From the IMG/VR virus record IMGVR_UViG_3300011422_000009, positions 1 through 41,554 of that record: a stretch of 41,554 nt of DNA; one strand, given 5' to 3'. Positions 1 to 41,554 of the stretch are shown here, piece after piece (position 1 is the stretch's first letter; each line of letters starts with the position of its first letter). The DNA comes from a virus (lineage: Duplodnaviria > Caudoviricetes). The translations under genes were made by a program, and so were the position numbers. The notes below the pieces were generated by a model, which was not told the DNA's origin, made no database searches, and saw only the letters and a list, made by a program, of their open reading frames with translations.

Positions 1-81
1 CAGCAACGCAGCAACGCAGCGGGGTATAGGTTTGTGGTTAAACGCAGTACATAACATTACATAACAAAAAGGGGTTTTACA

Positions 82-576
82 ATGGCAAGCAAGGCAACAA
101 TTACACAGTTACAAAACGTTTTACTGGCAACCCGCAATTTTAAGTTGCAACCTTTAACCCGCGCACAGCGCATAAACTTTTACCGCGCCGCACGCAACCC
201 GTACGCAGTACGGTATAGCGCAACGGGTAACCCTACGGGGTTACCCGTAGGGTTAACGTTTGTAGGGTTTGTACAGGGGTATACGGTATTGCGCAACCCT
301 AACAAACGGGGTTATACAATTGTACGGGTATACAGTACGGGGTACGCAGCAACCCCGTTTTACAGCGCAACCCGCAAGGGTATACCCGCTGCAATAGCGT
401 ACAAACTTGCGTACGGCGCAGCAATGCGCAGTACAAACCATAGTGCATGGCAAATAGGGTACAAATACCCTGCGCCGTTGCAAGCACAGGTACAGCGCGC
501 AGCGCGTACCGCTGCGCGTATGCAGTTGCTTGCGTTGCAAGCACAAATTGCAGCGGGTATACCCGTTGTAGCGTAG
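82..576 (+). CDS. hypothetical basic protein lacking Asp/Glu (164 aa)
   Basis: ATG preceded by AAAAAGGGG SD-like site, TAG stop, non-repetitive protein-like sequence, flanked by intergenic hairpins like the neighbouring genes. Confidence 0.75.
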   Translation: MASKATITQLQNVLLATRNFKLQPLTRAQRINFYRAARNPYAVRYSATGNPTGLPVGLTFVGFVQGYTVLRNPNKRGYTIVRVYSTGYAATPFYSATRKGIPAAIAYKLAYGAAMRSTNHSAWQIGYKYPAPLQAQVQRAARTAARMQLLALQAQIAAGIPVVA

Positions 577-581
577 GTTAC

Positions 582-670
582 GTTAAAGGCGTACGGTTAC
601 CCCGCTGCGTTGCGCAAGGCAACACAACGCAGCGCAGCGCAGCGCAGCGGGGTATACGTTTGTTTTTAAC
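582..670 (+). repeat. long intergenic inverted repeat with GCGCA/CGCAG units
   Basis: TACCCCGCTGCG pairs with CGCAGCGGGGTA, and outer GTTAAAGGC pairs with GTTTTTAAC. The 3' half resembles positions 15-60. Confidence 0.7.
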
Positions 671-703
671 TATACATAATACGTACACAGCAAGGGGTAC
701 ATA

Positions 704-1141
704 ATGGGGTTAACAAATAGCACAGCAACAAAAGTTGCAAACGCAAGGCATAAGCAAAAGGTAGCAAGGTTTAACGCAACGCAAACCCGCAAACTAGCAA
801 GCACAAAACCCGCACAGCGCGCACAAGGCGCAGCAATGCGCAAACCTGCGCAGCGGGGTAACCCACAACCCAAACTTAAAAAGTTACCTATAAAAATAGG
901 GTTGTGCGGGGTTGCCTTGCTAGGTTACCCGCACAATATATGGCATATGCAAAGCAATATGTACATAAATACCGTGTTGCAAATACGCGCGTACGCCTTA
1001 CATACGCTACCAAACGGTTACATATGGTTTTACGTACCCGCAAAAGGTAGCAAACCCGCGTACCATATTAAGGCGCACAGTAACCCCGCTACCTTTACAG
1101 CGGGTATACAACAATTTTACATAATAAAGTGGTTAAAATAG
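704..1141 (+). CDS. hypothetical basic protein lacking Asp/Glu (145 aa)
   Basis: AAGGGG SD-like site before ATG. K/R-rich N-terminus and aromatic, globular-looking C-terminus. Confidence 0.75.
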   Translation: MGLTNSTATKVANARHKQKVARFNATQTRKLASTKPAQRAQGAAMRKPAQRGNPQPKLKKLPIKIGLCGVALLGYPHNIWHMQSNMYINTVLQIRAYALHTLPNGYIWFYVPAKGSKPAYHIKAHSNPATFTAGIQQFYIIKWLK

Positions 1142-1143
1142 GT

Positions 1144-1226
1144 TACATATAGGCAACACAAACCCCGCGCCGTACGGCGCAACCTACGGGGTTTGTGTTG
1201 CTTGTTATGTACACTATGGTACATAA
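1144..1226 (+). promoter_or_regulatory. double-hairpin intergenic element, copy 1
   Basis: Perfect stem GCAACACAAACCCCG/CGGGGTTTGTGTTGC, then overlapping short hairpin TTATGTAC-actatg-GTACATAA. Confidence 0.7.
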
Positions 1227-1265
1227 AACACAACTTTACATAACCAAGAAAGGTTATAACTTACC

Positions 1266-1655
1266 ATGCAAAACAATACCGCAACCCTTACCCCTATTGT
1301 TAAAAACAATGCTTTAGGGCAATTTGCACACTATGCGCAAGCACAGGCGCAAAAGGCGCAAGCACAGGCGCAACGCCTTGCAAACGCAACCTACGTACTT
1401 GTTAAACCTAGCAAGGCAAACATTACACGTAACAAGCAAGGGGTTACCGCACAGCAACAAGCACAGGTTAACGCAAACCTTGCTGCAACGCTTGTATTGC
1501 AACTGTACCCTTTAGTTGCGCAAAGTGGTTTAACCCCTGCGCAGCAAGCACAGGTACAGCAACACTTGTTGCAAAGTGTATATACATTGCAGCAAGTTAC
1601 AACGCTACCCGCAAGCAAGTACGCAGTACAGTTACAGTTACCGCCAAACCCATAA
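1266..1655 (+). CDS. hypothetical Gln/Ala-rich protein lacking Asp/Glu (129 aa)
   Basis: AGAAAGG RBS at 1247-1253, helical Q/A/L-rich sequence, TAA stop. Confidence 0.75.
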   Translation: MQNNTATLTPIVKNNALGQFAHYAQAQAQKAQAQAQRLANATYVLVKPSKANITRNKQGVTAQQQAQVNANLAATLVLQLYPLVAQSGLTPAQQAQVQQHLLQSVYTLQQVTTLPASKYAVQLQLPPNP

Positions 1656-2165
1656 CCCGCGCCGCAAGGCGTACCCCGCAAGGCAACGCAAACCCGTACC
1701 GCACAGCGCAGCGCAACCCGCTGCGCAGCGGTACGGGGTTGCGGCGCACAGCAACGCAGCGTACCCCGCAAGTATAGGTACGCTGCGTTGCTGTACCCCG
1801 CAAACACAGCGCAAGGTACAGCGCAACCCCTACGCAACACAGCGCAGCGCAACGGCGCAAGGCGCAAACGTACGGGTAACCCGCAAGGCAACACAAACCC
1901 GCAAGGCGCAGCGCAGCGCAGCGCAGCGCAGCGCAGCGCAGCGTACCCGCAAGGCGTACCCCGCTGCGCCGCAAGGCGCACAGCGCAACGGCACAAGCAT
2001 ACCCGCGCGTATACGCGTACGCGTATGTACCCGTACCCGCGCTTATGTGCGCGTACGCGTACCCGCGTATGTGCGTACCTGCGCGCACGCGTACCCGTAC
2101 GCAAGGGTACGGCGCACAGTACAGCGTTGCAACACGGTAACCCGTTGCAAAATTGTACTGTGCGC
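1656..2165. repeat. non-coding repeat/palindrome-rich tract
   Basis: Contains (GCGCA)7 at 1906-1940, a perfect 18-bp inverted repeat (1748-1765/1777-1794), repeated CCGCAAGG, alternating purine-pyrimidine runs at 2004-2094, and an inverted repeat at 2112-2165. Confidence 0.85.
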
Positions 2166-2172
2166 AGAAATT

Positions 2173-2312
2173 GCAAAACAAATCTCGCTACAGAAAATGC
2201 AAAACAAATCTCGTGGGCAAAAAACAGCCACAAAATCTGGTAGCAAAAAATAACCACAAAATCTGTAGCAGTTTTTGCAAAACAAATCTAGCAGTTTTAC
2301 CAACACAAATCT
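2173..2312 (+). repeat. array of six AAATCT-core direct repeats (iteron-like)
   Basis: AAATCT at 2180, 2206, 2233, 2259, 2284 and 2307, with 23-27 bp spacing. Three copies read GCAAAACAAATCT. Confidence 0.8.
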
Positions 2313-2328
2313 CATAAAGGGGCAAAAC

Positions 2329-2565
2329 ATGAAGCGAAAAAATATGTACGTAGGCAAACAAGTTCAGATTAATGTTAACGGCACATTAACTACAGGTATA
2401 ATCTCACACCTATACCCTAACCTTAAATCTGAACTACAGCAACAGGTAGAAATAGATGTACTGCATAATGGGCAATTCTTAAGCCTAACATTGTACGCCT
2501 ATCAAATCTACGCTGTGCCACATATTACCACCAACAAATTTGACCCATACGTACAAATTGCCTAA
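2329..2565 (+). CDS. hypothetical protein (small beta-rich, possibly SH3-like)
   Basis: Start moved to ATG 2329 after the AAAGGGG RBS. Sequence VGKQVQINVNG..TGII suggests a small beta-barrel (inference). Confidence 0.7.
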   Translation: MKRKNMYVGKQVQINVNGTLTTGIISHLYPNLKSELQQQVEIDVLHNGQFLSLTLYAYQIYAVPHITTNKFDPYVQIA

Positions 2566-2573
2566 CAACAATC

Positions 2574-2636
2574 TGCAAACTAGGCAGCATAAGCAAAACA
2601 AATCTTGTGCTGCATAGTGTGCAAATCTGTTGCACA
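2574..2636 (+). promoter_or_regulatory. double-hairpin intergenic element, copy 2
   Basis: TGCAAACTAGGCAGCATAAG pairs with CTTGTGCTGCATAGTGTGCA, then TGTGCAA-atctg-TTGCACA. Confidence 0.75.
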
Positions 2637-2666
2637 ATAAACCAAAATCAAATCGGAGGTAACAAA

Positions 2667-2939
2667 ATGCAAGACGGGCGCAACTACAGCGGTTTAAGCG
2701 AAAGCGAAATAAGCACGCTACTAGATCTGAGGGATAGGGTATACGAAGATCATGGTTGCATAACGCATAGCCAAAACCACCGTATTCTGATTAACCTATG
2801 CTACCATATGATGTGGGAAATAACCACAGCATTATCTGAAGAGGGTGGTAGCTGGCAAGAAGATGAGGCGTTTTTGCAAACACACGAAAAGTTGGTACAG
2901 TTGCTCAACTATACCCGCCCCGTATATTCCGAAGACTAG
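2667..2939 (+). CDS. hypothetical protein
   Basis: GGAGGT RBS before ATG 2667. Confidence 0.75.
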   Translation: MQDGRNYSGLSESEISTLLDLRDRVYEDHGCITHSQNHRILINLCYHMMWEITTALSEEGGSWQEDEAFLQTHEKLVQLLNYTRPVYSED

Positions 2940-2959
2940 CATAAAACAAAACAACAATC

Positions 2960-3020
2960 TGCAAACTAGGTTGCACAAACAAGAAGGTTTGTGCAACATA
3001 GTGTGCAAATCTGTTGCACA
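2960..3020 (+). promoter_or_regulatory. double-hairpin intergenic element, copy 3
   Basis: 21-bp stem TGCAAACTAGGTTGCACAAAC/GTTTGTGCAACATAGTGTGCA with 2 mismatches, then TGTGCAA-atctg-TTGCACA. Confidence 0.75.
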
Positions 3021-3052
3021 TAAAATACCAACACGATCAGAAAGGCACAACA

Positions 3053-3535
3053 ATGTTTATGGATACATGGGTTGCTACCGATGGGATTACTACGGTACGC
3101 TTTTCCGACCTGCAAAGCGCAGAAATATATTGCGCCCAAACAGGATGGCAAACATCTGACCTTTGGTGTATACGGCAGCAACTAATCGTAACACCAGATG
3201 GGGAAAGCGCAATAGTAGAACCCTGGTGCAATCGGATGGACCCAGATGTAGATACAGAAGTACAAGGTACGTGGCTAGATCATGTGTTTGTACCGCCTGC
3301 AAATTCTGTAGCCAACGGTACAAGCGAAGATGATGTACCTGTAACCTACAGTTCTGAATATCTACGCCAGCTAGGTAGTATTTCAGAGCGGCTAAGGTGG
3401 GATTTTCGTGACCTAGCTGCAACAGAACCCACTATTTATAACAATCTAGTGGCTTACGTTAAAAAGTGCGATGCAAAGGGCAAGAAACCTACCCTAAAAG
3501 AAGCAGAAAAAATTGTGGGTAGGTACGCCAACTAA
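3053..3535 (+). CDS. hypothetical protein
   Basis: AGAAAGG RBS before ATG 3053. Confidence 0.75.
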   Translation: MFMDTWVATDGITTVRFSDLQSAEIYCAQTGWQTSDLWCIRQQLIVTPDGESAIVEPWCNRMDPDVDTEVQGTWLDHVFVPPANSVANGTSEDDVPVTYSSEYLRQLGSISERLRWDFRDLAATEPTIYNNLVAYVKKCDAKGKKPTLKEAEKIVGRYAN

Positions 3536-3541
3536 TCTGGT

Positions 3542-3611
3542 TTGCAAGCAAAGGGTACGGCCCATCATCAGATGGGTGGGCCGTTACCTTTACTTACAAT
3601 CTGGTAAGTAA
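3542..3611 (+). promoter_or_regulatory. double-hairpin intergenic element, copy 4
   Basis: AAAGGGTACGGCCCATC pairs with GGTGGGCCGTTACCTTT, then TTACTTAC-aatctg-GTAAGTAA. Confidence 0.7.
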
Positions 3612-3644
3612 CACACAAAACAAAGTTCAGAAAGGACTTATAAA

Positions 3645-4124
3645 ATGCCTTCTCCAAGTAAGCGTACTCAGATTGCCGCTATCTTAAAGCAGCAATATGG
3701 CAATCAAGTAGATACGCCAACGGTAAAGCAACAAGCGAATTACGAAGCGCACAAAGCTGTATCAGAATACTCACATGGCTATTATCAGGATTGGGGTGTT
3801 CTGGTAGGTATGTACGCAGGGTACTACGTAATTCAGCTTGACAGAAATGTAAGAACAGATCGGGATGCCAACGAAAATCTGTATGTTGCTTTCCGACTTT
3901 ACTACAACATCTATAGCTTTACCCATGAAAATGAAATTTGCTATATCCCGCAACATAGCAATGGGGTCGGAGGCCAAACGCTAGATGACTGCCTAAATGC
4001 AATCTGCTATCATATTGCCCACAACGCAGCTTATCGCAGCGCAAACACAGGATTGTGGCAACGTAGGCTTCCAGTTCATTTACAGCAACTTCCCAACGTA
4101 CCTAATCGGTTCGGAGTAAGCTAG
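3645..4124 (+). CDS. hypothetical protein
   Basis: AGAAAGGA RBS, 159-aa ORF. Confidence 0.8.
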   Translation: MPSPSKRTQIAAILKQQYGNQVDTPTVKQQANYEAHKAVSEYSHGYYQDWGVLVGMYAGYYVIQLDRNVRTDRDANENLYVAFRLYYNIYSFTHENEICYIPQHSNGVGGQTLDDCLNAICYHIAHNAAYRSANTGLWQRRLPVHLQQLPNVPNRFGVS

Positions 4125-4126
4125 GT

Positions 4127-4180
4127 TGCACATAGGCTGCATAAACAAGATTTGTGCAGCTTATTGTGCAGATTGGCACA
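4127..4180 (+). promoter_or_regulatory. double-hairpin intergenic element, copy 5
   Basis: TGCACATAGGCTGCATAAA pairs with TTTGTGCAGCTTATTGTGCA (G-U pairs), then TGTGC-agattg-GCACA. Confidence 0.72.
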
Positions 4181-4219
4181 GCAAGCAAACAAAGCAAAGT
4201 TCAGAAAGGCTTTATACAA

Positions 4220-4495
4220 ATGTCAGAATATCCATTGGTTGCCGTACCCCACTTACATGAAGATCAATTCATGGAAGGGGATGGGGATATGGGTTTTGCC
4301 GTACATCCGATGGCTGGCTATGGTACAATCATAGTTAGCGTGGATGGATGGGATTGCCCGTTGCAATTCTTCCGAGTAGACGGCATGGGTAGCTATCAGG
4401 TTTACGAATACGTAAACGAAGAAGATGGTGTAATCTGTTACATGGTTAATCCATCAGAGTTTGCCACTGTAGTACCTGTATCGCAAGAAGTGTAA
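4220..4495 (+). CDS. hypothetical acidic protein
   Basis: AGAAAGG RBS before ATG 4220. Confidence 0.75.
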   Translation: MSEYPLVAVPHLHEDQFMEGDGDMGFAVHPMAGYGTIIVSVDGWDCPLQFFRVDGMGSYQVYEYVNEEDGVICYMVNPSEFATVVPVSQEV

Positions 4496-4499
4496 TCAC

Positions 4500-4562
4500 G
4501 CACACGATACGGCATAACCCCCACAATCTGTTGTGCCGTATAGTGTACAGGATTGCTGTACA
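4500..4562 (+). promoter_or_regulatory. double-hairpin intergenic element, copy 6
   Basis: ACACGATACGGCATAAC pairs with GTTGTGCCGTATAGTGT, then TGTACAG-gattg-CTGTACA. Confidence 0.7.
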
Positions 4563-4601
4563 GTAATCGTCCTATGAAATCTCCAGAAAGGGATACATGA
4601 A

Positions 4602-4832
4602 ATGAAGTACATATTGCTAGTACGTAAAGATGGCGAGGAAGCACGACCAATAGAATGGGGTGCAAGAGAACGCCTACGTACTTTCCAGCTAGGCTACAAA
4701 CATGGTCTTTTGGATCAGGGTTGGAAGAGCTATGCCACTTATCAAAAAGATTATTACAATTTGGTAGATGGCAAAGGTAAACACATCCAACTATATATTC
4801 TGACCGAGCAAGAATGGAAAGACGAGAACTAA
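4602..4832 (+). CDS. hypothetical protein
   Basis: AGAAAGGGA RBS, 76 aa. Confidence 0.7.
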   Translation: MKYILLVRKDGEEARPIEWGARERLRTFQLGYKHGLLDQGWKSYATYQKDYYNLVDGKGKHIQLYILTEQEWKDEN

Positions 4833-4833
4833 C

Positions 4834-5115
4834 ATGCACTATGTAATGTACAAAGAAGCTGACGGCAACAGTGAACCGGAAGTTCTGTTTGCTGGCAATA
4901 GAGACAAGGCTATCGGTTACTACGAAGGCTTTGTAGATGCAATCCAAAGAATGGGCAACCATACACCAGATTTTAGGGGTGGCATGAAAGACCCAGATAT
5001 TGATTTACGGATCGCACGCATACACTTCTATCGTAACGATAATCCTGGTTACGCTTTCAACTTATGGGTTAAGAATTTACAACTTCCGAGAGCTTATAAC
5101 TACAAAGAAAGATAA
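4834..5115 (+). CDS. hypothetical protein (paralogue of 7738-7998)
   Basis: Abuts the upstream gene. Shares E-x-LFAG...Y...DAI and F-x-LW motifs with 7738-7998. Confidence 0.75.
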   Translation: MHYVMYKEADGNSEPEVLFAGNRDKAIGYYEGFVDAIQRMGNHTPDFRGGMKDPDIDLRIARIHFYRNDNPGYAFNLWVKNLQLPRAYNYKER

Positions 5116-5121
5116 ACAACC

Positions 5122-5199
5122 ATGTTGCACGTAGAACCAGAATTTGCCATTATCGCAATTGTGTTCTTACTGTGTCTATTGTGGGGCCGTAAGGTTTAG
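5122..5199 (+). CDS. possible 25-aa hydrophobic peptide
   Basis: MLHVEPEFAIIAIVFLLCLLWGRKV with AGAAAG upstream. Fills the gap before the next hairpin element. Confidence 0.4.
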   Translation: MLHVEPEFAIIAIVFLLCLLWGRKV

Positions 5200-5200
5200 G

Positions 5201-5260
5201 CGCAAACTAGATGCTATCACCTGATTAGATGGTAGCATTTAGTGTGCGAATAGACGCACA
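5201..5260 (+). promoter_or_regulatory. double-hairpin intergenic element, copy 7
   Basis: CGCAAACTAGATGCTATCA pairs with TGGTAGCATTTAGTGTGCG, then TGTGCG-aataga-CGCACA. Confidence 0.72.
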
Positions 5261-5297
5261 ATATCTTATTAGCTAGGTTTCAAGAAAGGAACCAAAC

Positions 5298-5801
5298 ATG
5301 AACGCCAACACCACCACGATCAAGTTCCCCCGCTTCAAGAAGGATGGGATCATTGCCAATGCCGTTAAAAACCATGAAGATTATATGGCTCGGCAGAAAG
5401 CACGTTTCACCTTCATCAAGCAAGCGGCACGCATGATCGATGAGAGCTGGTTGCCTGAAGATAGCCGTTTCTACGTAGAAACCTACGGTATGACCATCTA
5501 CATTCCTTGGTCAAAGGCTAATCTTATTAAGGCACGCAAGGCTATCGGAGCTGGCTGGAAGTACGATAGCCAATACCAGAACGATAATGGTACGCTGACC
5601 AAGAATTATCACACATACTTGGAAAGCGAATACATTAGCTTGACTCTGGTAATGGATGCAGAGAAGTTGGTCGAAGGTACTTGCAAGAAGGTCTTAGTGG
5701 AAAGCAAGACCGAGATGGTGCAAGTCACACGGCAGACCTATAAGGTCATCTGCGAAGATGGCACAGAAATGATGGAAGTAGAAACAGAACGCAACGTGTA
5801 G
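5298..5801 (+). CDS. hypothetical protein
   Basis: AGAAAGGA RBS, 167 aa. Confidence 0.8.
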   Translation: MNANTTTIKFPRFKKDGIIANAVKNHEDYMARQKARFTFIKQAARMIDESWLPEDSRFYVETYGMTIYIPWSKANLIKARKAIGAGWKYDSQYQNDNGTLTKNYHTYLESEYISLTLVMDAEKLVEGTCKKVLVESKTEMVQVTRQTYKVICEDGTEMMEVETERNV

Positions 5802-5884
5802 TGCAGAGGACGGCACACCCATGATCTTGTGGGTGGGCCGTAATGCGCCTTCCACTCGGAAGCTGGTTCCAAGTCCAGGCACAT
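5796..5884 (+). ncRNA. twister-like self-cleaving ribozyme (circularly permuted, type-P5-like)
   Basis: GCA-GAG-GA-[P1 CGGC..GCCG]-UAA-UGC-GC-[P3 CUUCC/GGAAG]-[P4 CUGG-UUCCAAGU-CCAG]. Both pseudoknot pairings (GA:UC and GC:GU) are satisfied. Confidence 0.82.
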
Positions 5885-5905
5885 TATTACCCAGAAAGGT
5901 ATAAC

Positions 5906-6160
5906 ATGAAAGAAGAAGAAGGTACGTATCTTCTGCAATTCCAGTTCGATGAGGCAATAGACATGGAAACAGAATGGTTCTACCATCTGCAACATGCGTT
6001 GGTGCGCCTTACGTATCTGAGCCAAATCCACCCCGACTATCTGGTAGCTTGTATCTTATTCCAGGCTAGGGATGGTGCGCTGTTCGATGTGTGTGAATTT
6101 AACATTCGGATAGGCTATGGTTTTGAAACAGATAGGATCCCCTATGCTACGGAATTGTAG
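5906..6160 (+). CDS. hypothetical protein
   Basis: AGAAAGG RBS before ATG 5906. The longer track start overlaps the ribozyme. Confidence 0.7.
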   Translation: MKEEEGTYLLQFQFDEAIDMETEWFYHLQHALVRLTYLSQIHPDYLVACILFQARDGALFDVCEFNIRIGYGFETDRIPYATEL

Positions 6161-9393: not shown

Positions 9394-9450
9394 CAAACAG
9401 ATAGCTCTCATGAAAATGGGAGCTATTTGTTTGCACTATACAATGTGCAA
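9394..9450 (+). promoter_or_regulatory. double-hairpin intergenic element, copy 9
   Basis: CAAACAGATAGCTCTCAT-gaaa-ATGGGAGCTATTTGTTTG, then TTGCAC-tatacaat-GTGCAA. Confidence 0.7.
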
Positions 9451-9597
9451 ATTACAGCGTAGGGTATAGGCAAAACACCTGTTTTAAGGTTTTATACGCC
9501 TATAGTGTACGCTGTAAAAACACCTATACCCCATTACAGGTACTACCCCACACAAAACACCTATACAACGTTTTGCAAGGGTAGTACAGCCACCCAA
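9422..9597. other. GA/TC-free intergenic island with inverted and direct repeats
   Basis: No GA or TC for about 176 bp. Inverted repeat TTACAGCGTA..TATAGGC/GCCTATA..TACGCTGTAA at 9452-9517. AAAACACCT at 9472, 9517 and 9554. Confidence 0.8.
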
Positions 9598-9615: not shown

Positions 9616-10542
9616 ATGAAGCTCATCCGGGATCGCTGGATGCCTATGTTTCAGCTTGCTAGAGAATTGGAACCCAAAGTAGATAAACTCTACAAAGGGG
9701 ATCCAGAATACTCTAAGGCTTTCGTAAAGAAAGCAGAGCAAGGCATGAAAGCGGACTATCGTGCGGCAGAAGCCTTGATGGCAATATCTGAAACTATTGT
9801 GCTGCCATCCAGCATTATGCTGGATTTAGTTCACAATATCGACAGAATCGACACCACAGGATGGATTAAACTGCCGTATCCCTACGTTACCATTCAGTTC
9901 ACCCACCCTATTTTAGAAACTGAGATCATGCTCCATGAGGAAAAGAATGACCTCATGACCAGATTTGGTTTAGAAAATGATACGGTGGAAGGAATCATCC
10001 TTGGTAACGCAGATCAGGATCAACGTCCTTTTCCACCACAGCATGTTTTCAACATGATGAATTGCTGCATACTGTTCAACTCAACAAGTGTGAACAGAGT
10101 AGCGTGGATAGGGACGAGCAGTCCGGCAAGACCTCACTGGCAGAACAGCATGTTCCGTGAAAGTGAGATGCCATACAAATCTAGGGAAAATAAGTACAGG
10201 ATGATCAAGTTATGTTATGCGATTAACCTGTTCTTAAATGCTCCCAACGTCATCGTAGTAAAAGAGAAGCCAGATCCCCACGTTAATGCAAAGCGTGAAC
10301 GTAAGGGGAAGGCTATCCTGCCGGAATACCATACGGTGACAATTCAGAAGATACAAGTGAAATACGCAGAACCTAGCGGGAAAACGGGAACGGCCCACAC
10401 ACGTATGTATCCTGTGCGTGGTCACTTCCGTAAACTTGCACAGTTTGAAGACCCAATCTGGGTGCATAATCACTTCCGTGGACTCAAACATGGCGAAGAA
10501 AGCCTCGTCAAAGAGATCTACAGAGTTGCGCCCAAGAAGTAG
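9616..10542 (+). CDS. hypothetical protein with C-terminal VRGHxR...W...H.RG motif
   Basis: Start moved to ATG 9616, since the upstream part of the track ORF is the non-coding island. The basic C-terminal His/Arg motif is recalled from phage proteins of unknown function. Confidence 0.8.
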   Translation: MKLIRDRWMPMFQLARELEPKVDKLYKGDPEYSKAFVKKAEQGMKADYRAAEALMAISETIVLPSSIMLDLVHNIDRIDTTGWIKLPYPYVTIQFTHPILETEIMLHEEKNDLMTRFGLENDTVEGIILGNADQDQRPFPPQHVFNMMNCCILFNSTSVNRVAWIGTSSPARPHWQNSMFRESEMPYKSRENKYRMIKLCYAINLFLNAPNVIVVKEKPDPHVNAKRERKGKAILPEYHTVTIQKIQVKYAEPSGKTGTAHTRMYPVRGHFRKLAQFEDPIWVHNHFRGLKHGEESLVKEIYRVAPKK

Positions 10543-10650: not shown

Positions 10651-11688
10651 ATGGAAGACCAAGTTCAGCCCAGCATCGCCAGTCAAATCGAGGCCCTCGT
10701 TGCCGCTAAGAATGCGGAAGGTGAGTACGTCACCGTCCGTACCGTATCCAAGCAACTGGGAATCAAGCAAGCCGATGTACGGCCAAACCTTCCGGCAGGA
10801 GCTACGCTTCTTCCCTCCAAGAATGGGACAATCGGCGAAAGCCGTATTCAATTGTCAACTGGAGAGGAGGAAGAGTATGTAGACGCAGATACTCTGCCCT
10901 CTACTGACTCCAGCAACGAAGAGGAAGTCGTTCAGTTAATGCTACCAAGAAAGACGAGGCGTGTTAAAGTGGAAACTGAACCGAAGGTACAAGAGCTCGA
11001 TGAGCAGGGCAACCCCATTCCGGAAGCGGAAAAGGTAATCTGCACCATCTGCGGAAATCCCGTTCGCAAGAATACCATTGTGCGACGTGGGATTTGTCCT
11101 CTCTGCTTCCGTCAGCTTGCCAAGAATGTAGGCATGAATGCTACGAAGTTGGAAAGCCTTACGGATGAGGAGTTTGACATCGTAACTGGTGAAGAGCTGA
11201 GCCGTCGTCGCACGTTGGAAGAATACAAAGCAGGACGTATTCTTACCGATGAGCAGTTCAAGGCGATGGAAGGCACGATTATCCCCGTTAAGGAAGTCTT
11301 TGCTGCCGCTAAAGCTGCGGGATACGGGCCTGGTCGTGTCGCTCAAGCAATGGGTGGCGATCGCTTCCGGCACGAGCCTCTGGGTGGTTTTGACTCGGTG
11401 TGGACGCCCTACTTCGTAGGCGCACGCAAGGGATGGTACTTCAACATCGATATTCTCAATCACTTCGATGACCTTGCCAAGCCTGTGAAGAAAAAGAAAG
11501 CCAAGAGCGCAGGAACCCGTTCGGCAGGAGCAGGTCGTAAGGGAGCTCGTGGTGCAGCCATGACGCAAGTCGTGGAGAGTGATGAGGAAGCCACGCAAAT
11601 GATGGATTCCACCAATCCAGAAGAGGATGAGTTTTACGAAGAAGAGCAGGATGAGGATTACATCGACGAAGTAGAAGAGCAGGTTTAA
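10651..11688 (+). CDS. putative DNA-binding protein (HTH-like N-terminus, Zn finger, basic patch, acidic tail)
   Basis: AGAAAGG RBS before ATG 10651. Features VRTVSKQLGIKQADV, CTICG..CPLC, KKKKAK and a D/E-rich C-terminus. Confidence 0.75.
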   Translation: MEDQVQPSIASQIEALVAAKNAEGEYVTVRTVSKQLGIKQADVRPNLPAGATLLPSKNGTIGESRIQLSTGEEEEYVDADTLPSTDSSNEEEVVQLMLPRKTRRVKVETEPKVQELDEQGNPIPEAEKVICTICGNPVRKNTIVRRGICPLCFRQLAKNVGMNATKLESLTDEEFDIVTGEELSRRRTLEEYKAGRILTDEQFKAMEGTIIPVKEVFAAAKAAGYGPGRVAQAMGGDRFRHEPLGGFDSVWTPYFVGARKGWYFNIDILNHFDDLAKPVKKKKAKSAGTRSAGAGRKGARGAAMTQVVESDEEATQMMDSTNPEEDEFYEEEQDEDYIDEVEEQV

Positions 11689-13311: not shown

Positions 13312-16300
13312 TTAAATAGTGTAGATAAAGTAACCAGAAATAAACGTGTTATTGGAGAAACTAGCATTAGTTACTTGTGACATAGATGCTGCACCCGCTG
13401 CCGGAGCAGCGAAGAAGCGTGCGGAATTGCTTCCTGCTATGCCACGTAGAACCATTGATGAGAAGGTAGTTACACTAAGATTAAGATAATTTACTGATCC
13501 CCCAACTGTATTGTCTGGTACAACGAAAGGGAAACTAGCTAACTCAGCAGCACCAGATGATAGTGACCCTTTGTTCATCAAGGATACTTCATACATAATA
13601 ACAACAAGATTACCTATACGTATCCAAGAACCCGACCTAGATTGATAAGTTACTCCGGCAGCACTATTAGCGAATCGTACATCTGGAGTATAGACTCCAC
13701 TCTCAAAGTAGGTAAGAGTGCTTTGTCCGAAATTGATACCTGCGCTGGCAGTTATAAGACCAGTTGCTCTAAGAGTACCTGTAACTTCTAGCTTGTACGC
13801 AGGAGCAATATTTCCAATACCGACGTTTCCGGCAGCAAGGATAGTTAAGCGATCAAGTGCATTTGTACGTAAGCTAAGATCATGATTGCTCCATGATCCT
13901 ATATAGTTGTTGCCGTTACTATGGGCGAACATACCCATTTCTTGCCCAAGTGAGTTTTTAAGATGGATACTGGCAACACTAACATTTGGAGAAATCTGTA
14001 TACCACCTGTATAGAAACTAACTGCTCCTACAGTTCCTGGCCCCACATGAAGTAATGCTCCTGGAGCCGTATTGTTGATCCCCATATAACCAGTAGTCTT
14101 TATGGTGGCTCCTGTTACTGAGGAAAGATCTGTAGAGGGGGAGATGGCGAAAGCATCAGCCAATGAACCGTCAATTCCTATTGTCCAGTTGGTCGTCTGT
14201 TGTGTAAATTGTAGACGTGCATCCCCTGCTCCTGCTTGCTGTATCTTCAAACCAACGGCAGAGATAGCCGTAGAATTATCATAGATATGCAAACTATGAT
14301 CAGGGTTGGTTGTGCCGATGCCGATGTCTCCCGTTGATTCTATTCTCATCCTCTCGACGTTACTCGTGCCAAAAATAAGATCATGAGCATTGACAGTACG
14401 GATGACAAGACGAGCAGCATTAGCAGCGAGCGAGACGTCACCATTGGTTAACGGCCCCGACGTTCCCCACCCGCTACCCATCATACCGAATACACCCGAA
14501 GTCCCTGCCACACCACGTACCGCCACTTGCGCCAACGCTCCTGCTCCCGTCGAAAGATTCTCCATCATCAACGTAGTTGAAGTCGCCTGATCTTTCTTGA
14601 TATGGACATAGTAAGCAGGAGCAGCAATTCCGAAGCCAAGATCTCCTGCCGCCGTTATTCTCATCTCCTCTACATTGTTGGTAGCGAAGATCATGTCATT
14701 AGCACCAATGGTGCGGAGTACCAACCGTGTAGAACCACCTGTGATATAAGCATCTCCACTGGTCATCGGCCCTGTTACGCCGTAGCCGCTACCGAGAACA
14801 CCCATTGTAGCAGATGCAGCACCACTACGAGCAGAGAGTGAAGCGACGGCCCCTGCTGCTGTGGATGGATTCTCAGAAGTAATATTGGTTACTGCTCCTT
14901 GGGATTTAGAAACGTGTAGCAGATAGATAGGAGTATCCGTACCGATACCAACTTCACCCGTTTCTACAATCCTCATCCATTCAGTACCGCCATTGCTATT
15001 TGTATATCGCAAACCGCCACCCTGCAAGCCACGAATTTGAGCTAAGGCAGCGGGAGTCGTCCCTTTATAAAAGATGAGATAGGGTTCCACCCCTACGGCA
15101 TCACTTGTGCGTGAAATGCGAATACCGGCGGCTGCACCTTCAACATGAAGCAGAGCTCCAGGACTTATCGTGCCGATGCCGACGTTACCATCGTTATGGA
15201 CACGCATAGCCTCGACACCATCGATGTAGGAGATGACATGACTACCAGAAAGATTCAATGGATAGTAGAGCAAATTGTTATCGTTGTAGGAGTTTAGAGT
15301 AGTCGAAGTAGCACTCACGCTCCAGTCAGAGCGCAAGTTAGGATGCGTCCCACGTCCTAATCTTATAGTGCTGACTGAGCCACCCCGAAATTCAGCGACA
15401 GCAGTAGAAGGGATAATCGTAGTTGTACCTACACCAAGTTGATGTGCTATGTAAGTAAGATCATCTCGTATGAAGGCAGCAGTTTCGGATCTTGTGGTTG
15501 CTACGTTGCCGCTTCCGAAGTAAGCTCCCGTAGAATCTAACCAAATATTGGAAGCTACTGTGGTCGTAGAGTTGATTCCGGCAAGTCTAACGGCCCCACG
15601 AGTATACGAATCATGGGATAAGCCGTAGCTAAAGATCTCTGCAACGGAATAAGCAAGACCACCTACCGTCTTCTTGTCTAGCCCAACTGTTCCACGCTTT
15701 TTAGAGGGGAAGGTTGTGATGCCATCCCCCATTTCTTCATACCAACCAATAGAATTGTATTCTGCTGAACCGAATTTCATACTAATTCCACGTACTTTAT
15801 CAATTGTAAAGATTGTATTTTGTGATTGATAAAGTCGGAAATCTACATTCCATAACTTTATGCCGTTCTTCACCCCTCCGTTGGCTACGCTCCCTGTCAC
15901 CATTGCAATCCCACTCAAACCATCAGCGGGTGACTTGGTAAGATCATCTGCGGCAGCAAAGCCAAAGCCATCCGAGAGATCACCCCATCCTGCCAAACTT
16001 CCCATGCTGACCACAGGAACGGTATCATTCCAAAGTGCAGTAGCGGAACGAGAGTAAACGGTGATAGTAGGGCCAATCTTGCCATGCAAGGTAGTAAGAC
16101 TAGATAGATCTATATAGCCATCACCGACGTTCTTACCAAGACTTACAATAGCATCCCCAGATTGCCATGCGGTCGTAGGCCCACCATCTACATTACGAGT
16201 TACAGACCAGCGATAGCCATCTGTAATGACCGTATGAGTTGTAGATGTAATCTTTAGAGCTTCTTGTTGCGGCAGCGAAGTAGTAGGATTTAAGCCTTCC

Positions 16301-27723: not shown

Positions 27724-28128
27724 TTATTCTTCCTCTCCTAATGTTACAAGACCCAACCTTGCGATTCTCTTCAAAGATTGCAATATTCTTGGTCCCCAGA
27801 AATCTTTTGCGGGAACTAGAATAGAGTAACGTCCTTGATGTGCTAATTCCAACCAGATAGTATAGTGTAAAGATGGATCGTGCTGTAGCACAATCGTACC
27901 AATGGGACCGCTAGTAGGATCTACCCAAGCCTTCAAACCTTGTCTGGCTTTTGTAGTTCTGTCCTTCCAAGGAGCATTATCCTTTGCCCATTGCTCCATT
28001 TCTGCTGCTTGCCGTATCGCTACATTCCTACCTGACTGGAAAGTTGCTTGCAAGAATAGTTCTGTGGTCTCCCCCATTCTGGTAAGGGAAGCTGGATTCT
28101 TTACGTATACCCCTGATTGATTCGCCAT
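27724..28128 (-). CDS. HK97 gp10-like neck/tail-completion protein
   Basis: Motifs AKDNAPWKDRT..ARQGL and Y.IWLELAH.GRY.IL.PA. Confidence 0.8.
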   Translation of the reverse strand: MANQSGVYVKNPASLTRMGETTELFLQATFQSGRNVAIRQAAEMEQWAKDNAPWKDRTTKARQGLKAWVDPTSGPIGTIVLQHDPSLHYTIWLELAHQGRYSILVPAKDFWGPRILQSLKRIARLGLVTLGEEE

Positions 28129-29176
28129 CTAATACTCCCTCATCGTGCAATAACTCTATCATTCCGGCGGCAGCATCCTGCCAAGTCTGATTGCCAGATA
28201 ACCACGCTCTTGCCTTCTTGCCCCTGGTCAAAGCCTGATCAGGTTCATTGTAGCAATAGAGCATTGCATCTGCTAATCGTTGGATATCGGCTATCATCCA
28301 TTCCCCGCAAGATCTACTTCCTCTCCTGCCAGGAGGGATTGGTGTCATCTTACCACCACCCACGATGTAAGCCCACTTATCCAAATGACCGTCGTCCATG
28401 CCGGAGAACTTCTGCGTAAGAACTTCCAATCCCATCATAGCTGCTTCACGGTGCGGCATCCCCCATCCCTCACATCTCGAGGGAATGGCGAAGCAATCAC
28501 CTTTGTTAAAGAAGTCAGACATATCATCATAGATGTTACGCTCAACAGATATCCTAGGATCCATGTCTTTTGCCCTAGCAATAAGATCCACTATACGATT
28601 GCTCTTGGGCAAGCTCTTGATGATTAAACGTACATCCTTTATCCCATCTGTCTTGCTGCCGAAGGCTTTGTAGAAGGCATAATATACTTCCTGCCATCCT
28701 TTACGATCCCCTCTGTCAGACAGAGCTAGGAACGTATAAGGTCGTGAATTATCTACCGTCCTCATAGGAAATTCTTCAGGATCTGTTCCTAACGGCACAA
28801 CCTTAATAGGAATCTTAACACCACTATCTTCATATACATCCTTACAAAACTGCGACGGCACAAGAATAAGCTCTACGCCACATTTATGGATTGCCTTGAC
28901 TAAGGCTTTGGATATTTGACTTCCCTCACACATCGTATAGAGCCAGTGTTTCCCTTTAACTTTAGGAACATTAAAAGGTTGATGACAGGTGATCGAAAGA
29001 TTATTCCAATCTACCCGCATCTGATCTAGCATCCATTTAGGTTTCTCAGTATCCTCTACGGTTATCGGCAGCACATCCAATCCAAACTCTTGCATCTGCT
29101 TCACTAAGCGTGCCGAGAATCTACCGTAGCCATCATAGTGTGCGTAATAACTAATCCAGTTAATCGTCATGCCCAT
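28028..29176 (-). CDS. GT-B fold glycosyltransferase (GT4-like)
   Basis: Motifs DGYGR, VPSQFCKDVY, RKGWQE and D.FAIPSRCEGWGMPHREAAMMG (ExxG-x3-E). Confidence 0.9.
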   Translation of the reverse strand: MGMTINWISYYAHYDGYGRFSARLVKQMQEFGLDVLPITVEDTEKPKWMLDQMRVDWNNLSITCHQPFNVPKVKGKHWLYTMCEGSQISKALVKAIHKCGVELILVPSQFCKDVYEDSGVKIPIKVVPLGTDPEEFPMRTVDNSRPYTFLALSDRGDRKGWQEVYYAFYKAFGSKTDGIKDVRLIIKSLPKSNRIVDLIARAKDMDPRISVERNIYDDMSDFFNKGDCFAIPSRCEGWGMPHREAAMMGLEVLTQKFSGMDDGHLDKWAYIVGGGKMTPIPPGRRGSRSCGEWMIADIQRLADAMLYCYNEPDQALTRGKKARAWLSGNQTWQDAAAGMIELLHDEGVLDGESIRGIRKESSFPYQNGGDHRTILASNFPVR

Positions 29177-37195: not shown

Positions 37196-37227
37196 CTAGG
37201 ATTCCTTGCGATGAATGTGTTAGGTTT

Positions 37228-37256
37228 AGCCTAACACAACATAACGTATTTGTAAA
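37228..37256 (-). promoter_or_regulatory. sigma70-type promoter for the structural operon
   Basis: On the - strand: TTTACA, 17-bp spacer, TAGGCT, with extended -10 TG. Confidence 0.55.
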
Positions 37257-37292
37257 GCAGCAATAACCGTATATTGTGGGCATATACCCAAT

Positions 37293-37321
37293 TTGCAGCC
37301 TAGCGGCGGCTGTGCTATACT
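37293..37321 (+). promoter_or_regulatory. sigma70-type promoter for the replication operon
   Basis: TTGCAG, 17-bp spacer, TATACT, with extended -10 TG. Confidence 0.7.
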
Positions 37322-37382
37322 GCTAAATACGTTATGCGCCCAAGCATAATAAAATATTACAGCCGAGAAAGGCCAAGACAGA

Positions 37383-40899: not shown

Positions 40900-41292
40900 A
40901 TGGTGAGCATCAGCCGTATACTAGCCTTTGATCCTGGTGAAAGCACAGGCATTAGTTTTGTGCAAGACGGTGAATTTGTGTGGGGGATGGTGTGTCGTCC
41001 CGAAGCATTTGATAAGGAAGACTTCATCTTTGCGCTTACTAAGATGACAAAGCCTACCACCATCGTCATAGAATCACCACCCAACAGCACCCTCTTCTTC
41101 AACCAAGACCAGTTCCATATCTACGCTACACTGTGCCATTGCTATGAGACCGCTGGCTACAATGTAGTGAAGATTACCCCTGGTCAGTGGAAGAAGTTAA
41201 TAGACCGCACCAAAGTAGATAGCGTTGACATTAAAGATGCCGCTGACATGGCTCGTATGCAGTACAGAATCGAGACCAAACGTGGAACCTGA
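40900..41292 (+). CDS. RuvC-like Holliday junction resolvase
   Basis: ILAFDPGESTG, IVIES, ITPGQWKK and DAADMA. Confidence 0.8.
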   Translation: MVSISRILAFDPGESTGISFVQDGEFVWGMVCRPEAFDKEDFIFALTKMTKPTTIVIESPPNSTLFFNQDQFHIYATLCHCYETAGYNVVKITPGQWKKLIDRTKVDSVDIKDAADMARMQYRIETKRGT

Positions 41293-41554
41293 TATCACCA
41301 TAATCGGCGGCGGTTTAAGTGCGATTTACGCCTATTGGGGTTGCCGTGACGCTGGCTATGAAGCTGACCAGATAGAGGTATTAGCAAGTAAGATGGCCCT
41401 TCCCATCGGCGCTATCTTCATGTACGAAACGCCAATCCCCTGGGTAGCTACACCCATCACCAGCATCCTGTTAGGTACGGCAGACCTGTACTCCATGAAC
41501 CAATGGACAAAGGTAGTGAAGACTAGCGCACATACACGCTTCAACAACAGCCAG
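41282..41554 (+). CDS. FAD/NAD-binding oxidoreductase (truncated by window end)
   Basis: Open frame from GTG 41282 reads DITIIGGGLSAIYAY, a Rossmann GxGxxA motif. No stop before 41554, and absent from the ORF track. Confidence 0.7.
   Translation, partial: MEPDITIIGGGLSAIYAYWGCRDAGYEADQIEVLASKMALPIGAIFMYETPIPWVATPITSILLGTADLYSMNQWTKVVKTSAHTRFNNSQ

Follow-up and report, generated by a model that had tools for sequence, protein, structure and literature searches.

Avoidance of a motif in leading DNA is known from the first-step-transfer segment of T5 and the leading end of T7, and to our knowledge a bare dinucleotide is the site of no restriction-modification (R-M) system. According to the accessible text of PMC12455610, Murciavirus avoids a motif in its first-injected DNA against a type I R-M system. 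Other phages hypermodify their DNA in a short sequence context. The main text of a preprint (PMC12191111) reports that roughly a quarter of the thymidines of the Pbunaviruses F8 and 14-1, in a TG context, carry a sugar-alcohol or pentose derivative. As far as the accessible text of the respective papers goes, hypermodified 5-hydroxymethyldeoxyuridine (5-hmdU) is placed at TG/TC in M6, ViI and phiW-14 (PMC6449724) and at TG, then TC, in SH-Ab 15599 (PMC13458397), with the pathways given in PMC8989533, and the DpdA phages CAjan and iggy are modified at GA and GGC (PMC7544227) and at GA (PMC10484667), respectively. In the present study, we analysed positions 1 to 41,554 of IMG/VR record IMGVR_UViG_3300011422_000009 (41,554 nucleotides in full, here called the window), a partial tailed-phage genome whose first 2,166 bp belong to a block almost free of the dinucleotides GA and TC. 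This feature is real and selected and is probably the footprint of self-modification, and self-modification of the DNA in some form appears likely. As its specific form, we consider it somewhat probable that the phages of this clade modify their own thymidine at TC and keep the block and some promoter stretches TC-free, hence unmodified and readable by the host RNA polymerase.

The locus shares features with each of these systems and departs from each. As in leading-region avoidance, the motif is missing from an early and plausibly leading part of the genome (about 8-9%) with small variable genes, but the motif is a dinucleotide, its loss costs all Asp and Glu, it is missing also at internal predicted promoters and it is apparently the phage's own mark. 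The 5-hmdU phages have a context that includes TC and are protected from restriction; unlike them, the clade has no match to a ThyA-type hydroxymethylase or HMUDK_hel and does not avoid TG/CA, and motif-free regions are not described in the accessible text on those phages. The DpdA phages use the same dinucleotide on the other strand, but the clade is without DpdA or Que matches and the longest GA/TC-free gap of CAjan is 81 bp. With the Pbunaviruses the clade has in common a ThyX variant with the motif THQLVRTR, HAD- and MazG/dUTPase-type enzymes, a flavin adenine dinucleotide (FAD) protein that may be related in fold and the sparing of palindromes that contain the context, whereas its context is TC with an exemption for TCNG, its genome is of siphovirus type with PolA, and F8 carries no motif-free island. 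The genome architecture is new, since it failed the tested features of the DpdA, 5-hmdU kinase and leading-region restriction-avoidance kinds. Should the chemistry exist, it probably represents a variant of the thymidine hypermodification already described. No description of dinucleotide-free islands was found in the literature searched, subscription papers and supplements aside, and motif-free islands are not mentioned in the accessible text of PMC10484667, PMC7544227, PMC8989533, PMC12686479 and PMC13326640. The literature on the enzyme module, on Onyinye and on Chloroflexi phages likewise gave no description of the islands or the module.

Depletion and conservation of the block

In window positions 1-2166, TC occurs 0 times against 109.0 expected from base composition and GA occurs once against 155.8. 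These counts reproduce the near-total loss reported by a sequence-only reading of this DNA, although the joint expectation is about 265 and not about 200 as given there. The single GA lies at 1248, within the ribosome-binding AAGAAAGG ahead of the open reading frame (ORF) 1266-1655, and for other dinucleotide pairs in the window the longest gap never exceeded 225 bp. When the three block ORFs were recoded with bulk codon usage, they held on average 38, 32 and 27 GA/TC (minima over 1000 draws 24, 21 and 10) versus 0 in the actual genes. In addition, the 843 bp of non-coding DNA in this stretch are purged as well, which upholds the claim that the rule acts on the nucleic acid and not on the protein. 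The absence of Asp and Glu from the block ORFs is a consequence and not a cause, because their codons start with GA; 13 block ORFs from four phages hold 0 Asp and 0 Glu in 1,993 residues versus 12% in bulk genes. The ribosome-binding sites of the other block genes are GA-free, e.g. AAAGGGG. Three simpler causes were ruled out: low complexity or amino-acid bias by the recoding of the three proteins, avoidance of UV dimers by the raised TT (observed-to-expected ratio, O/E, 1.67), and, for this clade, an RNA-level target by a sense strand that lacks both GA and TC, also upstream of predicted promoters.

The block is not an assembly artefact. Contigs of run X2, a freshwater sediment sample according to its record and from a study other than that of the possible source run X1, match the window with 0 differences each at 349-692, 712-1525 and 1501-1897, and a further contig spanning 1994-2831 crosses the edge at 2167, also with 0 differences. 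This bridging contig, the identical overlap with the sequence L149 and the position of the blocks inside the contigs of relatives exclude the chimera that the earlier reading had named as a possible flaw. The X1 contigs leave 1-1950 uncovered and contig depth is flat, and neither run is informative on modification. The region does not start at base 1, as had been supposed: L149 is identical to the window across a 1,954-bp overlap and adds 2,801 bp upstream with 0 GA/TC, so that the block of the window phage, with its one exception, spans 4,967 bp or more. The window contains no terminal repeat of the block.

Homologues with normal GA/TC would have spoken against the feature; instead, such a block is conserved in eight diverged relatives, seven of them strict and one (G004) relaxed. 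Complete blocks measure 4,624 bp in G001 (3 exceptions), 4,721 bp in G002 (0), 4,783 bp in G003 (0) and 5,364 bp in L150 (1); partial blocks were seen in L152, L153, L155 and L160, the last of which matches L150. The blocks make up 8-9% of the genome, sit inside contigs, have a G+C content of 45-60% and are scarcely similar as DNA except at ORF 1266. The block is a conserved, selected feature. A first search for relatives using ORF 82-576 found none, and ORF 1266 as the query led to 13 metagenome loci, the window itself being one of them. The three window block proteins gave no Pfam or PHROGs match and no NCBIfam match above the cut-off, and the ORF 1266 product had no ESM Atlas match. This product is the prime candidate for a pioneer factor.

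The left edge of the block carries a conserved motif ending in GGATC, followed by ATGCC..AAGTAC.TA, in G001-G004 and G015, with a variant in L150 (L028 5940-6010, L029 5835-5900, L030 4780-4850, L031 2480-2545, L118 55-135 and L150 1020-1090). The motif is a candidate packaging or genome-end signal: contig L157 begins 2 nt behind the left-edge GGATC, a thin hint of a genome end, and three contigs read through the motif. The 16-nt pattern of this edge also matched 6 unrelated loci, of 10, that have no block, and the pattern alone is thus not specific. In G001-G004 the GA/TC density reaches its maximum (O/E 1.2-1.4) within the 2-3 kb just ahead of the block, giving a saw-tooth at the left edge.

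Patches at predicted promoters, tolerated contexts and restriction sites

The avoidance is not confined to the leading region. Internal GA/TC-free patches are present at 9421-9597 and 37214-37364, and in 200 shuffles of the bulk sequence a gap never exceeded 75 bp; the statement that the rest of the window uses GA/TC freely holds apart from these two places. The second of these patches, between the terminase and helicase genes, is found again in six relative lineages, where it measures 142-172 bp. Its rightward predicted promoter, TTGCAG (37293)-17-TATACT (37316), faces the helicase/replication operon and the leftward one, TTTACA (37257)-17-TAGGCT, the terminase operon. The aligned boxes, TTGC..-17-TA.ACT and TTTACA-17-TA.G.T, do without the GA of TTGACA. 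For the patch at 9421-9597, a promoter role is suggested by its position, with no consensus match. A third patch of 166-172 bp lies directly upstream of the block in G001-G003, G015 and L150. Overall, the patches are predicted to serve promoters.

The edge at 2167 is sharp for the complete absence of GA/TC, but the recovery behind it is gradual. In 700-bp steps after 2167 the O/E of GA/TC is 0.63, 0.60, 0.70, 0.85, 0.92 and 1.02, and recovery over 3-4 kb past the edge was found in all four phages tested. The TCs that appear first are of a particular kind. In the first 1.4 kb past the edge of the window, 44/104 are TCNG, and over all transition zones (7/7 loci) TCNG makes up 41-51% of TCs versus about 20% in bulk, with other NCNG at 18-23% in the same zones. 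In G004, whose helicase is 85% identical to that of the window, the relaxed block has 59 of its 65 TCs in TCNG and 54 in TCNGC, and exceptions of this kind alone are admitted to its promoter patch, with the same two exempt contexts inside the promoter spacer. Since the same exemption is found in block and patches, one agent with a sequence preference shapes both. In pooled bulk DNA, TCCGGA, which consists of two TCNG, has an O/E of 0.30, the second lowest of the 16 GA/TC palindromes. The G004 regions with TCNG(C) tolerance (L031 1-2500, block; L020 9832-9950, patch) offer a natural comparison for enzyme specificity. Immediately right of the edge, AAATCT recurs about every 26 bp (window 2167-2320), and G002 and L155 carry CCAGATCNGA at this place, the context being the tolerated one throughout; these repeats (L029 10570-10700, L155 3220-3420) are a candidate operator, iteron or entry-pause array.

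The bulk of the genome was examined by its restriction palindromes, counting 6-bp palindromes with zero copies. In the window bulk, where 13 of the 64 were dropped for fewer than 3 expected copies and 51 were used, 18/39 palindromes without GA/TC were absent versus 0/12 with GA/TC (Fisher p 0.004). The same comparison gave 13/41 versus 0/13 in G001, 11/35 versus 0/14 in G002, 8/31 versus 0/13 in G003 (p 0.08) and 11/33 versus 0/12 in G004. Among palindromes with four G+C, strong depletion was seen in 10/13 without and 0/6 with GA/TC; those with two G+C (1/16 versus 0/8) were uninformative. As controls, F8 spares the TG/CA class of its published context (0/14 versus 8/36, p 0.09), CAjan shows the right direction for GA/TC, not significantly (0/14 versus 7/41), and G007, which has a GT4 glycosyltransferase and no ThyX match, does not spare the GA/TC class (4/15 versus 9/36). 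The TG/CA palindromes of the window bulk are not spared (9/16 depleted), and TG/CA is common in the block. Thus GA/TC-containing sites in the bulk look protected, as expected if GA/TC is modified.

A related island on one strand was found in G033, a distant phage with a complete genome of 75 kb, which encodes the ThyX-variant/FAD module and in which GT4 was not matched. At G033 69767-71131 (L171), 1,365 bp contain 0 TC on the + strand versus 58 expected, and 72 GA are kept; the non-coding 219 bp ahead of the first gene contain 0 TC and 14 GA. The island heads a gene block, beside divergent terminase-side genes. It is a speculation that a smaller mark matters on one strand, as in G033, and a sugar-enlarged mark on both, as in the clade. 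One-strand islands of this type escape joint GA/TC scans. A likeness noted by eye between the first gene of the G033 island and window ORF 10651-11688 was dropped, as tblastn gave no support.

Candidate enzymes, proposed mechanism and alternatives

In relatives G001-G005, whose helicases are 73-90% identical to that of the window, the gene order continues past the window end with the FAD enzyme, a dUTPase+HAD fusion, a protein that we take to be Nmad-like, ThyX, PolA, a primase, an M23 endolysin, a few small genes, the block and the early genes. These nucleotide genes point to thymidine as the modified base. The ThyX variant of the clade has the motif THQLVRTR in common with F8 gp59 (hhalign 98.6%), where the usual ThyX motif reads RHR in place of RTR. 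Among cultured phages, the variant is matched best by Onyinye, by cluster BN Streptomyces phages and by 291 Pseudomonas phage records. We infer that the variant serves the modification. F8 gp57 is of HAD type and F8 gp49 of MazG type. For the FAD enzyme, 156 relatives were obtained at E 0.001, and its model (pLDDT 97) shows the fold of a flavoprotein, close to those of styrene monooxygenase and UDP-galactopyranose mutase; PDB sequence searches gave nothing significant. Its third viral fold match is a 280-aa protein of Pbunavirus PA5 (E 1.6e-10, TM 0.45, 13% identity), whose length and position match it to the PA5 gene with 91% identity to F8 gp65. In Onyinye and Wentworth, too, genes for the FAD enzyme and a HAD phosphatase are present. 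Parts of the module can be seen in cultured phages (Onyinye 54049-61168, Wentworth 33620-42035, Gordonia phages and F8 gp49-gp65), and the DNA of these carriers may hold modified pyrimidines.

The self-modification favoured by the earlier reading, with the segment left unmodified, gains from the conservation of the block, its recurrence at internal predicted promoters and the spared GA/TC palindromes, and loses its DpdA precedent. TGT/DpdA (PF01702) was matched in 0/5 records (the window and G001-G004, partial records that jointly cover the clade gene order; control 14/14), and the 7-deazaguanine phage CAjan has no GA-free island. No match to the Que/FolE precursor genes (folE/queD/queE/queC) was obtained among 49 window and 26 relative proteins, nor among 47 proteins in NCBIfam. 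The 5-hmdU kinase HMUDK_hel (PF18723) was matched in 0/5 records, with a sensitivity left unproven by a control that matched 1/14, none over the cut-off; Pfam scans of clade proteins gave neither this kinase nor aGPT-PPlase. No ThyA-type dUMP hydroxymethylase was present among the proteins scanned, the clade synthase being ThyX-type (PF02511). The GT4 enzyme may add a sugar to the modified base or may glycosylate the virion. The module and GT4 occur together only in the block clade among the genomes examined. GT4 alone was rejected as the cause: homologues are in 61 loci and outside the clade no gap exceeds 91 bp, the near-complete carriers G006-G011 are without an island, the 120-bp gap of G006 being due to a repeat in coding sequence, and KellEzio, with a distant GT4, has no island. 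The GT4 gene is 57-58% identical to that of G001/G005 versus 92-96% for the upstream head-tail genes, and its family is widespread in sediment phages.

We propose that the module of ThyX variant, dUTPase-HAD, Nmad-like protein and FAD enzyme would make a modified thymidine in the Pbunavirus style, placed in the context TC instead of TG with TCNG as a poor substrate, and that GT4 could enlarge the mark. The mark would shield restriction sites yet hinder sigma70-type initiation, and because of this hindrance the bare patches would be about two polymerase footprints long. The block would be the first DNA to enter and to be read and would start at the conserved edge motif, a possible genome end; one basic block protein would then render the modified remainder usable, and the fading purge downstream of the block would reflect the lag. 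A bare block may be needed for the first round of reading, or as a way past modification-sensing nucleases (END, for example) as long as inhibitors are lacking. A bolder version, held only tentatively and rather doubtful as a whole, is a chromosome with two chemistries: in the bulk, TC would hold a thymidine with a novel sugar-bearing group, the product of an uncharacterised pathway of ThyX variant and FAD enzyme (plus glycosyltransferase), whereas the 5-kb pioneer end and the promoters would be TC-free; the pioneer end would encode acid-free proteins, and one of them, the product of ORF 1266-1655, would reprogram the host RNA polymerase or strip the mark and so make the modified genome readable. 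For the start of transcription by host RNA polymerase on hypermodified phage DNA, this clade offers an answer that is legible in the sequence and testable. The cost is extreme, several proteins being without Asp or Glu and ribosome-binding sites and -35 boxes being rewritten. The pattern predicts the modification context TC, not TCNG, and the candidate enzymes are shared with therapeutic Pbunaviruses. If the bolder version is true, motif-free islands would be a sequence-only readout of the context, strand and exemptions of a modification. The pattern also provides a means of finding modified phages and their promoters in assemblies alone.

Several points weigh against this proposal. The modification is deduced from sequence patterns and gene content, and ThyX with dUTPase could be an ordinary dTMP supply. 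The genes for the Pbunavirus modification are not named in the accessible text of PMC12191111, F8 has no TG/CA-free island, and the link between the FAD enzyme and gp65 is at fold level only: hhalign aligns 19 N-terminal columns (30%), and the hidden Markov model of the FAD-enzyme family missed F8 gp65. The module is not sufficient, since no island, on one strand or on both, is seen in three of its carriers: Onyinye, whose genome is complete, G029, with 41 kb at 67% completeness, and Wentworth, in the 44 kb examined of its 68 kb. A generic sigma70 scan gave a promoter count not above shuffles. The palindrome counts come from kin genomes and are partly confounded with G+C, as G+C-rich words are avoided more. 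In addition, the window block retains TGCGCA (10), CGTACG (9) and CGCG (21), words that the window bulk purges (0/16, 0/12 and 4/57 of expected), and G002 and G004 show the same TGCGCA contrast. It is our guess that such contrasts between block and bulk come from a fast turnover of the block that tracks the present host. Furthermore, according to the accessible text of PMC4838386, it is chiefly at initiation that the RNA polymerases of B. subtilis and E. coli are blocked by bulky groups in the major groove, and no defect in elongation was seen; therefore, polymerase blocking fits the patches better than 5 kb of coding DNA.

This last difficulty is met by an alternative that retains self-modification at TC and the polymerase role of the patches, in which the main purpose of a bare block is to conceal the first-entering DNA from modification-dependent nucleases (type IV, END) until block proteins inhibit them. 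We regard it as unlikely, although it accounts for coding DNA that is purged despite tolerant elongation, for the gradient and for the small fast-evolving basic genes. END nucleases are reported to attack many hypermodified phage DNAs and Pbunaviruses to encode inhibitors (PMC12191111, preprint, main text). Certain 4-bp palindromes are also depleted more strongly in the blocks than in the bulk, which is what unmodified DNA facing ordinary restriction would show: CCGG 0/7 and AGCT 0/6 of expected in the window, CCGG 0/16 and CGCG 0/37 in G002, and GGCC 6/74 in G001. A nuclease that senses the base should ignore the strand, yet G033 purges one strand only; moreover, no block protein resembles a known inhibitor, and two causes are needed for one rule.

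The G033 purge of the sense strand would suit a host enzyme acting on displaced single strands, and a second alternative, quite improbable in our view, is that such an enzyme directed at unmodified DNA (a TC deaminase, a DarT-like ADP-ribosyltransferase or a nuclease) hits first-entering DNA and open promoters before counter-measures are in place. A threat limited in time would fit the gradient past the edge, and the lineage-specific exemption in G004 could follow a host change. Spared GA/TC palindromes in the bulk are not predicted by it, however, the 142-179-bp patches far exceed a transcription bubble, and the G033 purge includes the non-coding DNA before the first gene. The DarT motif is TNTC and the Dnd motifs are GAAC/GATC, neither of which would demand the loss of every TC. 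The second inference of the sequence-only reading, that leading DNA evades a host reader of GA/TC, keeps a plausible leading position and is otherwise opposed by the internal patches, the GA/TC sites tolerated elsewhere and the 5'-TCNG exemption.

A modified purine, the G (or A) of GA, placed by an unrecognised phage or host enzyme as in the 7-deazaguanine phages, is very improbable. GA is the DpdA motif of CAjan and iggy in the accessible text of PMC7544227 and PMC10484667, and the G033 template strand would then be GA-free, where adducts would stall polymerase; the absence of TGT/DpdA and Que/FolE matches, the pyrimidine-type nucleotide genes and CAjan without an island speak against it. The least credible explanation, that the islands were occluded from the modifying enzyme by polymerase, terminase or replication proteins and lost the motif to a phage-made or host nuclease cutting unmodified DNA, or arose by local mutational bias without selection, is in line with patches of about protein-footprint size and with TT and AA raised in several blocks, as TC-to-TT change would give, but occlusion is improbable over 5 kb of protein-coding sequence, the blocks at 45-60% G+C are not A+T-enriched, and conserved proteins without Asp/Glu together with the retained ribosome-binding-site exception point to selection.

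Features of the window and its genome context

The coordinates of the features are collected in Table 1.

Table 1. Features of the window, with position, strand and remarks
Position	Strand	Feature	Remarks
1..2166	.	3' part of the GA/TC-free block	dinucleotide counts
82..576	+	164-aa basic protein without Asp/Glu, pI 11.2	homologue in G003 block, 40-42% over 69-81 aa; no family match
704..1141	+	145-aa basic protein without Asp/Glu	homologues in blocks of G002 (34%), L150 (52%) and L155; no family match
1246..1253	+	ribosome-binding site AAGAAAGG, sole GA of the stretch	G001 keeps the same exception
1266..1655	+	129-aa Gln/Ala-rich protein without Asp/Glu	most conserved block gene, 55-73% in G001-G003
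1656..2166	.	non-coding, repeat-rich block end: GCGCA arrays, hairpins	sequence
2167..6000	.	transition zone, GA/TC O/E about 0.6 to 1	opens with AAATCT repeats about 26 bp apart
9421..9597	.	GA/TC-free patch, intergenic, ahead of AcrVA2-like gene	also in G005, G019, G028, L150 (162-179 bp)
9616..10542	+	308-aa AcrVA2-like protein (PF26125)	called from ESM Atlas features (score 0.98); 13-51% of the cluster members carry the family
28028..29176	-	GT4 (GT-B) glycosyltransferase among head-tail genes	present in G001-G005
37214..37364	.	GA/TC-free patch that holds a predicted divergent pair of sigma70-type promoters	alignment of the boxes covers 7 sequences
41285..41554	+	FAD-dependent enzyme, 5' fragment, opens nucleotide-modification-like module	cut by contig end; relatives continue

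The gene layout consists of small early genes on the + strand to about 12 kb, structural genes on the - strand from 37.2 kb down and a replication operon on the + strand that is cut at the contig end. The same proteins are also recorded on a 57,344-bp contig. No close cultured relative was found, the terminase showing less than 28% identity among the best 25 rows. A Caldilineaceae genome bin holds a homologue (47%) of the window glycosyltransferase, which is a weak lead towards a Chloroflexota host for the phage.

The AcrVA2-like gene is the first behind its patch and is followed by the gene of a 345-aa zinc-finger protein; it is 59-79% identical in G001 and G002. Related hairpin-like inverted repeats, candidate RNA-processing sites, lie between small early genes at 2566-2666, 2940-3052, 3536-3644 and 4125-4219; the stretches 2564-2641 and 2950-3024 are 83% alike. 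The 2,440-aa tail fibre-like protein at 13312-20634 has a PHROG match only in its centre. Near the endolysin or helicase genes, individual lineages carry extra genes: a PAPS-reductase gene in G001 (L028 3805-4827) and, by eye, a ParB-like gene in G015 (L118 1770-2450). The former (DndC-like) was ruled out as the cause of the depletion, as only G001 has it among the loci tested. Genes resembling homing endonucleases by eye were observed in G004 (L020 11665-12099; L031 2643-3062).

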